From Chloroflexota bacterium (lineage in GTDB: Bacteria; Chloroflexota; UBA11872; VXOZ01), in assembly GCA_965221905.1 (NCBI GenBank), contig OZ244922.1, positions 1,248,001-1,312,000 on the forward strand: DNA of 64,000 nt. Direction: 5' to 3'. The notes beneath the pieces are model-generated. The model was given only the letters and a program-made list of their open reading frames with translations, was not told the DNA's origin and made no database searches. Positions 53,598 through 54,888 of the stretch are shown in pieces (positions within the stretch are counted from its first letter, which is position 1; each line of letters begins with the position of its first letter). The position numbers and the translations under genes were made by a program.

Positions 53598-53724
53598 GTC
53601 TTCACGTCTTTCTAGCTGTTGAGTTAGGTAACCAAGTCTTTCATGTTACAAATTGAGGGCCTCGTTGCAGCCGTGATTCGCGCATCCGTTCATCCTTCGA
53701 CAGGCTCAGAAACTGTCTTGGGTG

Positions 53725-54660
53725 TCAAGGTGCGGTGGTTGGTTTCCAGGGCGACTGTGTATTGAGCATGCGGTTGAGGATGGTGAGCAGCTTGCGCATG
53801 CAGGCGGTAAGGGCCACTTTCTTGGGTTTGCCTGCGGCGCACAGTCGGTCATAGAAGATTTTGATCACCGGATTGAAGCGGGTTGCGACCAAGGTAGCCA
53901 TGTAGAGACTGGCGCGCACCGGGGCTCTGCCGCCCCAGACGCTGCGCTTGCCCCGGTAGGTGCCGCTATCCCGGTTGTGGGGAGCGACCCCCACCAGCGC
54001 GGCAATCTGCTTGCGATTGAGCCTGCCCAGTTCCGGGAGTTCTGCCAGCAAGCAGGTAGCCGTAACCGGGCCAATTCCCGGTACGCTGGACAGCAGGTTC
54101 TCACGGGCACGCCACAGCGGGCTGGTTTGGACGAGCGCCGCCAGTTCCTGGTCCAGGCTATCGAGTTGCCGCCGCAGCCAGGCAATGTGGGACTTGATCT
54201 GGGGACGAACCCGCTTGGTGGCCCGGGGCAGACGGTTGCACTCGGCAGTCAGCATCGCGACCACCTGCCGCCGCCGCGCTACCAAGCCCCGCAACTCCTG
54301 CGTCTGCGCGTCCGGCAGTGCGCGCGCCTCCGGTTGCACCGCTTCTCCAAAGCGCGCCAGCATGCCTGCATCTATCGCGTCCGTCTTCGCCAACCGTCCC
54401 GTGGCGCGCGCAAAGTCCCGCACCTGCCGCGGGTTCACGACCGTCACCTCCAGCCCCGCTGCCACTAACTCTCCTGCCACCGCGCTCTCCAGCCCACCCG
54501 TCGCTTCCAACACCACGCCCTGCGGCGCCAATGCAAGCAGACGCTCCCGCAGCTCCTCTATCCCTGCCGCATCGTTCCCAACCCACCACGACTGCGCTTC
54601 GTCAGCTACTCCCACGTCAAGCCGGTCTTGCGATACATCGATCCCCACGTACACTGCCAT
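53725..54660 (-). CDS. IS110-family DEDD recombinase/transposase
   Basis: GIDVS, LEATG, KTDAIDA, SVPGIG, SG serine loop (RDSG), ACMRKLL. Confidence 0.95.
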
Positions 54661-54679
54661 TGCCTCCCTCCTGCTATAC

Positions 54680-54845
54680 TATGGCTGGCGCTCCCATGCA
54701 GTCCCTGCCTTACGGATACGGACTTCGTGTCCCGGTAACTGTTCGGGCTCTGGGGGAGCTCGGCAGGTGTGGCGACCACTCTGAGCCACGGTCTGCCAGA
54801 CCTAGGACGAACCGGTCTGCCACGCCTGCTCCCATTCTATCTCCC
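54680..54845 (-). ncRNA. IS110 bridge RNA (ends approximate)
   Basis: Left non-coding end contains GTTCGTCCT and GGCTCAG matching the target, and ACAGTT/GTAT matching the donor junction. Confidence 0.85.
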
Positions 54846-54888
54846 TTTTCCAAGATATAAGGACGAACGGATGCTAATTGTATGGCGG

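Follow-up and report, generated by a model that had tools for sequence, protein, structure and literature searches.

Does the non-coding end of an IS110-type element in a Chloroflexota genome encode an RNA guide that is programmed against a repeat of its own host? The question is raised by a locus in the window analysed here, a stretch of 64,000 nucleotides (nt) from a Chloroflexota bacterium (GenBank assembly GCA_965221905.1, contig OZ244922.1, positions 1,248,001 to 1,312,000 of the forward strand). An original prediction, made from the letters alone, had proposed an IS110 bridge-recombinase element with a readable guide against a host repetitive extragenic palindrome (REP). All coordinates given below are window positions unless another replicon is named. 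We conclude, with a probability of about 0.9, that the minus strand of 53710-54859 is an intact, multi-copy insertion sequence (IS) of the IS110 group, of IS621 type, with its own bridge RNA. The proposed identity is borne out by the protein families, by a left end with two loops and by guides that match the sites of all six copies in the genome. The element is a clear further example of the mechanism described in 2024 and not a new mechanism, since the mechanism itself, the targeting of REPs and the covariation of guide and target on a large scale have been published (PMC11208160), and NCBI models already label the protein as RNA-guided.

An intact IS110-group element in six copies

The element proper measures 1150 bp, from 54859 down to 53710 on the minus strand, between two CT cores, or 1152 bp including one CT. 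Read on that strand, the locus is catccGTTCGTC-CT-element-CT-GAGCCtgtcgaaggatgaacggatg, where the element begins with TATATCTTGG and ends with CCCAAGACAGTTT. The left junction is catccGTTCGTC-CT-TATATC, with its copy of the core at 54861-54860, and the right junction is ACAGTTT-CT-GAGCCtgtcgaagg, with the core at 53709-53708. Between them lie a left end (LE) of 199 non-coding bp (54661-54859), which finishes in a Shine-Dalgarno-like GGAGGGAGG before the ATG, an open reading frame (ORF) of 311 amino acids (aa) at 53725-54660, and a right end (RE) of 15 non-coding bp (53710-53724) that terminates in the left donor half ACAGTTT (53716-53710). The limits of the LE were set by the agreement of the six identical copies. 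The span first proposed, 53683-54873, does cover the element but also takes in the repeat that the element splits. All the strings from which it was argued are present where they were reported: GTTCGTCCT at 54812-54804, GGCTCAG at 54787-54781, ACAGTT at 54742-54737 and GTAT at 54719-54716.

A search of the host genome (3.52 Mb, a single contig) returned six full copies, all 1150 bp long and 100% identical as reported by the search, of which one (L086) shows a single base change in the hairpin of the donor loop. All six have the same ends with CT on both sides, and in all of them the 311-aa ORF and its catalytic residues are intact. Since the flanks are unrelated among copies beyond the repeat, the six represent separate insertions. 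The ends are those of the IS110 group, namely a long LE, a short RE, no terminal inverted repeats and no duplication beyond the core, and lengths of 199 and 15 bp fit those given for the group by Durrant et al. (PMC11208160). A seventh IS110-like DEDD match elsewhere in the genome (G000:C1:352624-352932) is degenerate, scoring 37.9 bits and containing two in-frame TGA stops.

The protein encoded by the ORF matches both Pfam domains of the family, DEDD_Tnp_IS110 (PF01548, 76.4 bits, cut-off 29) and Transposase_20 (PF02371, 70.4 bits, cut-off 21.3), as well as the NCBIfam model NF033542, 'IS110 family RNA-guided transposase' (224.8 bits, cut-off 140). Among solved structures the best match is ISCro4 (PDB 9t56; E 1.6e-44, residues 4-305), and the IS621 recombinase (8wt6) aligns with E 2.4e-42 and 148.5 bits. 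In this alignment D8, E52, D94, D97 and S232-G233 face D13, E62, D104, D107 and S243-G244 of chain 8wt6_A, so that all catalytic residues are conserved. These chain residues would correspond to the native D11, E60, D102, D105 and S241-G242, the catalytic residues named for IS621 by Hiraizumi et al. 2024 (PMC11208158), if the chain is offset by 2, as its 328 positions against the native 326 imply. The length of 311 aa, which had been singled out as compact, is correct and unremarkable, as IS621 has 326 aa (PMC11208158).

The target is a dispersed REP-like hairpin

All six copies sit at CCGTTCG[T/C]C-CT-GAGCCTGTCGAAGG, with GTC in four and GCC in two; mapping the other copies, which had been suggested as a check, thus returned one REP-like site and no unrelated sequences. 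At our locus the left target half (LT), GTTCGTC, occupies 54862-54868 and belongs to the 5' arm of the hairpin, while 53683-53707 holds the right target half (RT), GAGCC (53707-53703), and after it the remainder of the loop with the 3' arm tgtcgaaggatgaacggatg. The hairpin is seen whole in another genome of the same genus (G003, locus L062), where the orthologous spacer, with a flank 98% identical, has no element: the site is scarless, has a single CT and an intact LT, and reads AGCATCCGTTCGTCCTGAGCCTGTCGAAGGATG, exactly the empty target that had been reconstructed from the two junctions. Folded as DNA, it gives a 15-bp stem and an 11-nt loop (-9.5 kcal/mol, z -2.8), and CT closes the 5' arm as its final two pairs, at the stem/loop junction.

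The host genome contains 224 occurrences of the loop word CTGAGC[N]TGTCGAAG, six of them at the right ends of the element, and empty sites are found as the exact 14-mer GTTCGTCCTGAGCC (10 occurrences) and as GTTCG[CT]CCTGAGCC (61 occurrences). From these counts the target is a dispersed REP-like hairpin. Sites with GTC (4 occupied, 10 empty) are used out of proportion to those with GCC (2 occupied, 51 empty), so that sites matching the guide perfectly are over-used (Fisher p=0.015; this and the other Fisher values below are optimistic, copies within a genome and genomes within the genus being related).

As to its surroundings, the element lies in the spacer between two genes of the Amidohydro_2 family, at 52773-53597 and 54889-56076, both on the minus strand. 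Of the seven genus orthologues of this spacer that were read, three have no repeat and three others have repeats that are differently arranged and in the opposite orientation. Elsewhere in the genome (G000:C1, ~2566050-2566460) there are 15 tandem copies, with a period of 26, of CCGTTCGCCCTGAGCTTGTCGAAGGG, which comprises the 5' arm and loop of the REP-like hairpin; the array thus presents 15 consecutive target words of the GAGCT type. The sequence before the array, CTTGAAAGCCAAGACAACTCCTGAGCC, looks like the right end of a further IS110-type element.

The occupied and empty versions of the locus also bear on whether the element is a recently dead relic, left by past spread or by duplication of host segments, in which the RNA or the recombinase no longer works. 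We regard this as very improbable. Duplication of host segments sits badly with the unrelated flanks, and loss of function with six copies that are 100% identical by search, one base change apart, and keep an intact ORF and catalytic residues throughout; the relic reading can point to that base change, placed as it is in the donor-loop hairpin of L086, to the degenerate seventh ORF, and to the promoter scan and public runs, in which no sign of a transcript, a circle or a polymorphism came up. Occupation here against an empty site in the sister genome points to recent movement.

A predicted two-loop RNA in the left end carries guides for target and donor

On the same strand as the ORF, the LE encodes a predicted RNA whose core, with a target-binding and a donor-binding domain, spans 54685-54830. 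It is matched over the full length of our covariance model (R1, 161 bits), and the minimum free energy (MFE) fold gives the same two domains. Folding the left end, as had been advised, therefore did yield two internal-loop domains like those in the bridge RNA that belongs to IS621.

The target-binding domain (54763-54829) is closed by an outer stem, GCAGGCGUGGCAGACC/GGUCGCCACACCUGC, in which (helix 1) 13 of 15 pairs change on both sides among relatives, and its loop is formed by G-GUUCGUCCU-A on the 5' side and GU-GGCUCAG-AGU on the 3' side of a small inner hairpin, GGUCUGGCAGACC (54802-54790). The left target guide (LTG), GUUCGUCCU at 54804-54812, has the same sense as LT plus core and so pairs with the bottom strand; it agrees with GTTCGTC-CT at 9/9 positions in four of the six copies, and the other two, with GTTCGCC, need one U.G wobble. 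The right target guide (RTG), GGCUCAG at 54781-54787, is the complement of CT-GAGCC, matches 7/7 at all six copies and covaries with RT in the genus. Both lie where Durrant et al. 2024 place the guides in left-end RNA; there LTG has 9 nt, and RTG measures 4 nt in IS621 and more than that in some orthologues (PMC11208160). When the 199-nt LE was shuffled 200,000 times at the mononucleotide level, the 9-mer appeared in 0.02% of shuffles, the 7-mer in 2% and both together in none, which excludes a chance co-occurrence of the two guide words.

The donor-binding domain (54690-54759) consists of an outer stem GCUCCC/GGGAGC, middle stems CAG/CUG and CCC/GGG and an inner hairpin GGAC..GUCC (helices 3-6), with G-AACAGUUAC on the 5' side of its loop and UAUCCGUAAGGC on the 3' side. 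Its left donor guide (LDG), ACAGUUA at 54736-54742, compares with the left donor half (LD) ACAGTTT at 6/7 positions, the mismatch being at position 7. Position 7 of LD is reported to tolerate mismatches (Durrant et al., PMC11208160). For the right donor guide (RDG) the earlier choice, GTAT, gives way to a better one: AU-CC-GUAAG at 54709-54717 (AU at 54717-16, GUAAG at 54713-09), which pairs discontiguously with CT-TATAT with one G.T wobble and a 2-nt bulge. The pattern AU-NN-[G/A]UAAG recurs in all six aligned variants from the genus, and it reproduces the arrangement of the IS621 RDG, in which nine RNA nucleotides stand against seven donor bases (PMC11208160).

Bases just 3' of RTG and RDG may form the non-cognate 'handshake' arrangement of Hiraizumi et al. 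In the target loop, the putative handshake guide AG (54779-54780) could pair with donor T7/T6 (A:T, G.T) after strand exchange, by analogy with A81/U82 of IS621, and this position is A[A/G] in all six genus variants. In the donor loop (54707-54708), G54708 could pair with target C7, by analogy with IS621 G166; this G is kept in every row of the guide alignment except an antisense one.

To build the covariance model, six genus sequences were combined with a structure of 34 pairs written by hand. Its one strong match in the window is that described above, besides a weak antisense echo of 24.7 bits, and the model also detects the RNA upstream of the ORFs of relatives. In the model-fitted alignment, whose fit favours the structure and whose 17 rows include one spurious antisense echo, 94.5% of the cells pair, against 73% after shuffling and 32-43% when the partners are slid, and 27 of the 34 pairs change on both sides. 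The fit carries this bias, but a wide gap separates the result from the slid controls, as it does in the number of pair types. Alignment of 14 upstream regions with MAFFT followed by RNAalifold recovered the structure only partly, because the MAFFT alignment was not structure-consistent (a second one was alike), and the model-based alignment was used instead.

The presence of REP-like words in the left end could also mean that a piece of the REP had been captured there, or that the element is of the IS1111 type and carries a seekRNA in its right end, the DEDD recombinase being common to both subgroups (PMC11208160). Either is scarcely credible. In a captured piece the words would be expected in the colinear order of a REP, and RTG is instead the reverse complement of the target, separated from LTG by a hairpin inside an internal loop. 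The IS1111 group is described as having a long RE with the RNA and subterminal inverted repeats of 7-17 bp (PMC11208160); an RE of 15 bp has no room for an RNA, and on this ground the element is not of IS1111 type. The match to NF033542 above its cut-off speaks against both.

Guide and target change together among natural variants

A search of DNA from the genus recovered 28 loci in 7 of 17 genomes; both ends could be parsed in 25, only the RE in 2 and neither in 1. No variant differs in its donor ends (ACAGTTT-CT-TATATC) or in its donor loop, while the target loop exists in four types. Variant A, to which our element belongs (7 loci), has LTG GUUCGUCCU and RTG GGCUCAG and is found at GTTCG[T/C]C-CT-GAGCC in 7/7. 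Variant B (L072) combines LTG GUUCGCCCU with the same RTG at GTTCGCC-CT-GAGCC (1/1). Variant C, in genome G006, shares LTG GUUCGCCCU and has RTG AGCUCAG; its right flanks read CT-GAGCT in 14/14, and its LT is GTTCGCC in 11 of 12 loci and GTTCACC in the other. Variant D (5 loci in 4 genomes), with ~75-81% nucleotide identity and the same donor module, has LTG G[A/C]UGGCCCU (GCUGGCCCU) and RTG GGGAGAG and lies at ..GGCC-CT-CTCCC (AGCC in L079), a different repeat, in 5/5; there RTG matches 7/7, and LTG 5/7 by Watson-Crick pairs plus the core, with U.G or G.T at one more position, a sixth, in four of the five loci. The repeat used by variant D is a second dispersed one, ccctcacc..ggccCTctccc (L071, L074, L075, L078 and L079).

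These variants bear on whether the RNA or the hairpin directs insertion. A recombinase that recognises the REP-like hairpin itself, by protein-DNA contacts or by structure, with the left-end matches incidental or auxiliary, would be in keeping with the strength of the hairpin and with a core placed exactly at the stem/loop junction. It would also suit the frequent lack of a match at the first one or two LT positions, and for ISPpu10 a 2026 preprint describes a target stem-loop that adds specificity beyond base pairing (10.64898/2026.03.19.712850). A single base in RTG argues otherwise: with G the elements lie at GAGCC (8/8, variants A and B) and with A at GAGCT (14/14, variant C), both kinds of site being available. 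G006 still holds 15 empty GTTCGCC-CT-GAGCT and 20 empty GTTCGCC-CT-GAGCC sites, so its choice of GAGCT is not for lack of an alternative (p=2e-4), and the association of RTG type with RT type has a Fisher p of 3e-6. Variant D further shows the same donor module going to an unrelated repeat with a different target loop. We therefore think recognition of the hairpin alone improbable, if a little less so than a dead relic; structure may still contribute alongside RNA guidance.

The same correspondence extends beyond the genus. A scan of species-representative genomes gave 43 loci with relatives of 34-99% aa identity, in Chloroflexota, Burkholderiales, Planctomycetota and many Acidobacteriaceae; for the outgroups among them, the junctions were assigned by analogy and, in multi-copy genomes, by comparison of copies. 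With junctions so placed, L020 has LTG UAUUCCCCU and RTG GCAGGAG at GATTCCC-CT-CCTGC, L021 has RTG CGGUAG at CT-ACCG, L022 has RTG CACGGAG at CT-CCGTG, and in the acidobacterial elements an RTG of CGCUCAG, or of CGUUCAG in two genomes, goes with CT-GAGCG or CT-GAAC(G/C). On the donor side, LDG equals LD at 7/7 positions in these four lineages, with LDGs including ACAGUCG, ACGGUUG (facing ACGGTTG in L020) and ACAGCCG, and a U or C in RDG tracks an A or G in the right donor half: TATAT goes with ..UAAG in this genus and TGTAT with ..CAAG in the outgroups. In Acidobacteriaceae (L023-L059, 35-41% aa identity) insertion is at GTCATC-CT-GAGCG of an abundant repeat of their own. The shared loop start CT-GAGC suggests that this IS lineage uses a common class of hairpin repeats across phyla.

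A wider interpretation may be put forward tentatively, and we rate it as distinctly less probable than not. At least four natural target-loop alleles would operate on one recombinase/donor module, from a one-base RTG switch between GAGCC and GAGCT to a full swap onto an unrelated repeat; the lineage may track widespread 'stem-CTGAGC..GAAGG-stem' hairpins at their stem/loop junction; hairpin geometry might provide a second layer of recognition; and the fixed mismatch at LD position 7 might aid strand exchange.

A possible circle-borne promoter and the proposed mechanism

By analogy with the work on IS621, the element may be expected to be transcribed, to form a circle, to catalyse RNA-guided recombination and to be active at present. 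Movement would probably proceed via an excised circle. Its RE-CT-LE joint would read TTGACA-N17-TATCTT and so create a promoter, from a putative -35-like TTGACA (53723-53728), which overlaps the stop codon 13 bp from the right end, and a putative -10-like TATCTT (54852-54857), both on the minus strand; the promoter would be complete only in the circle. The geometry is the same in L021 and the acidobacterial relatives, where -35-like hexamers at the same distance from the end are TTGACA, TTGACT, TTGAAA and TTGACC, and a junction promoter across RE and LE has been described for IS110 elements (Durrant et al., PMC11208160). Transcription from this promoter would yield first a bridge RNA of ~150-170 nt from the left end and then the mRNA of the recombinase. 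In the first internal loop, LTG GUUCGUCCU would base-pair with the host site on the bottom strand of GTTCGTC-CT, and RTG GGCUCAG would do so on the top strand of CT-GAGCC; in the second, which would pair with the joined ends, LDG ACAGUUA would face ACAGTTT, and CT-TATAT would be bound by RDG AU..GUAAG. Cleavage and strand exchange at the CT core would fall to a tetramer of the recombinase, through its DEDD residues and Ser232, and the element would land at the stem/loop junction of the REP-like hairpin, duplicating nothing beyond CT. The parts of this scheme that concern the anatomy of the element, the consistency of its sites, the empty site, the covariation of guide with target and within stems, and the catalytic residues are observed directly in the genomes.

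Several results weigh against a working bridge-RNA element and have to be set beside the above. In the RNA, the core-facing bases of LDG are CC and not CU and vary in relatives (UC, CA, CG, UA), so that the pairing of LDG with the core as drawn for IS621 is not evident; the match of LDG to LD is only 6/7 in this element; and the MFE fold of the whole left end has a z-score of only -1.46. At the target, LTG leaves the first LT position unmatched in variant D (two positions in one locus) and the first two in the acidobacterial elements. The structure-favouring fit of the alignment and the relatedness of the copies, mentioned with the respective figures, belong here too. As to expression and excision, a promoter and terminator scan of the integrated copy returned nothing, including no sigma-70-like promoter, and no RE-LE circle joint or excision product was seen in the contigs of 4 out of 24 public sequencing runs. 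Two RNA-library runs, from one study labelled as sponge metagenome, gave 2 and 3 contigs, which cover the flanking repeat and portions of the ORF but no part of the bridge RNA; these contigs may be DNA and are uninformative on transcription. In one 98-nt DNA contig (X9, record 18), left-flank sequence with 4 differences in 83 leads into 15 letters of uninterrupted repeat; this falls short of the 31-letter rule for bridging and was not counted.

sX15 and asX7 appear to be two strands of a bridge-RNA remnant

On the strand of the bridge RNA, an Rfam search of 53000-55500 (E up to 10) gave no family. The only real match is RF02234, the Xanthomonas small RNA sX15, at 54683-54838 on the plus strand, antisense to the bridge RNA. 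The match spans the full model over the same 156 bases, but with 43.9 bits against a gathering threshold of 55, and on the strand antisense to the recombinase, it does not make the region a member of the family. Our bridge-RNA model matches the Xanthomonas plasmid pXCV183 with 68.9 bits (L097 1881-2026, minus strand, or NC_007507 ~116380-116525) on the strand that encodes asX7, the RNA published as antisense to sX15 (PMC3300014), and a truncated IS110-like ORF that begins MNGIGIDVCKAKL follows just downstream. On account of this strand and the ORF downstream, sX15 and asX7 appear to be two strands of one IS110 bridge-RNA remnant, and RF02234 itself would seem to describe the strand antisense to an IS110 bridge RNA. 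The 98-aa ORF annotated beside sX15 has no Pfam match, and a literature search did not find 'bridge RNA' and 'sX15' together.

Comparison with known systems

As far as sequence can tell, the element appears to have every defining feature of an IS110-group bridge-recombinase element for which we looked; RNA binding, RNA dependence and the circle are further features that it would be expected to have. A literature search combining IS110 with Chloroflex* and sponge returned nothing related; the supplements of Durrant 2024 and ISfinder were outside this search, and the element may already be listed or named there. Specific to this case are the allelic series of target loops within one genus, the natural RTG of 7 nt and a target hairpin that is split at its stem/loop junction. 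Guide and site change together among sister elements, which makes this a clean natural demonstration of the programmability of bridge RNA. Four target-loop alleles with their cognate sites and counted empty sites, served by a recombinase distant from that of IS621, also form a panel from which rules of specificity could be addressed, among them the tolerance of wobbles, the 7-nt RTG, the handshake bases and the role of the target hairpin.

The closest parallel is IS621 of E. coli, as described in PMC11208160 and PMC11208158. Both have a recombinase with DEDD residues and a serine, five catalytic residues of which align, a left-end RNA in which one internal loop serves the target and one the donor, a CT core and a REP as target. 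In both, LTG comprises 9 nt (7 plus core) and reads like the top strand, RTG complements core plus RT, a discontiguous 9-nt RDG faces seven donor bases, handshake-type bases would lie 3' of RTG and RDG, and a promoter would appear to span the RE-LE joint. They differ in that the protein here, with 311 instead of 326 aa, shows only distant similarity (148.5 bits), the natural RTG has 7 nt instead of 4, the mismatch between LDG and LD position 7 is fixed, and the core-facing bases of LDG are other than CU; moreover, our element is known from sequence alone, its host belongs to Chloroflexota and its target is a different repeat. The ISCro4 transposase (PDB 9t56), the best match among solved structures, was compared at the protein level only. 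Elements of the IS1111 group with seekRNAs share the recombinase family and differ in having the RNA in a long RE and longer subterminal inverted repeats (PMC11208160), against an RE of 15 bp here. ISPpu10 of Pseudomonas putida (bioRxiv 10.64898/2026.03.19.712850) is similar in that all its copies lie in one REP family and its target can form a stem-loop, but that stem-loop is described as lying 5' of the target and involving LT, whereas in our element LT and core make up the 5' arm, the loop begins with RT and the 3' arm comes after it, so that insertion splits the hairpin.

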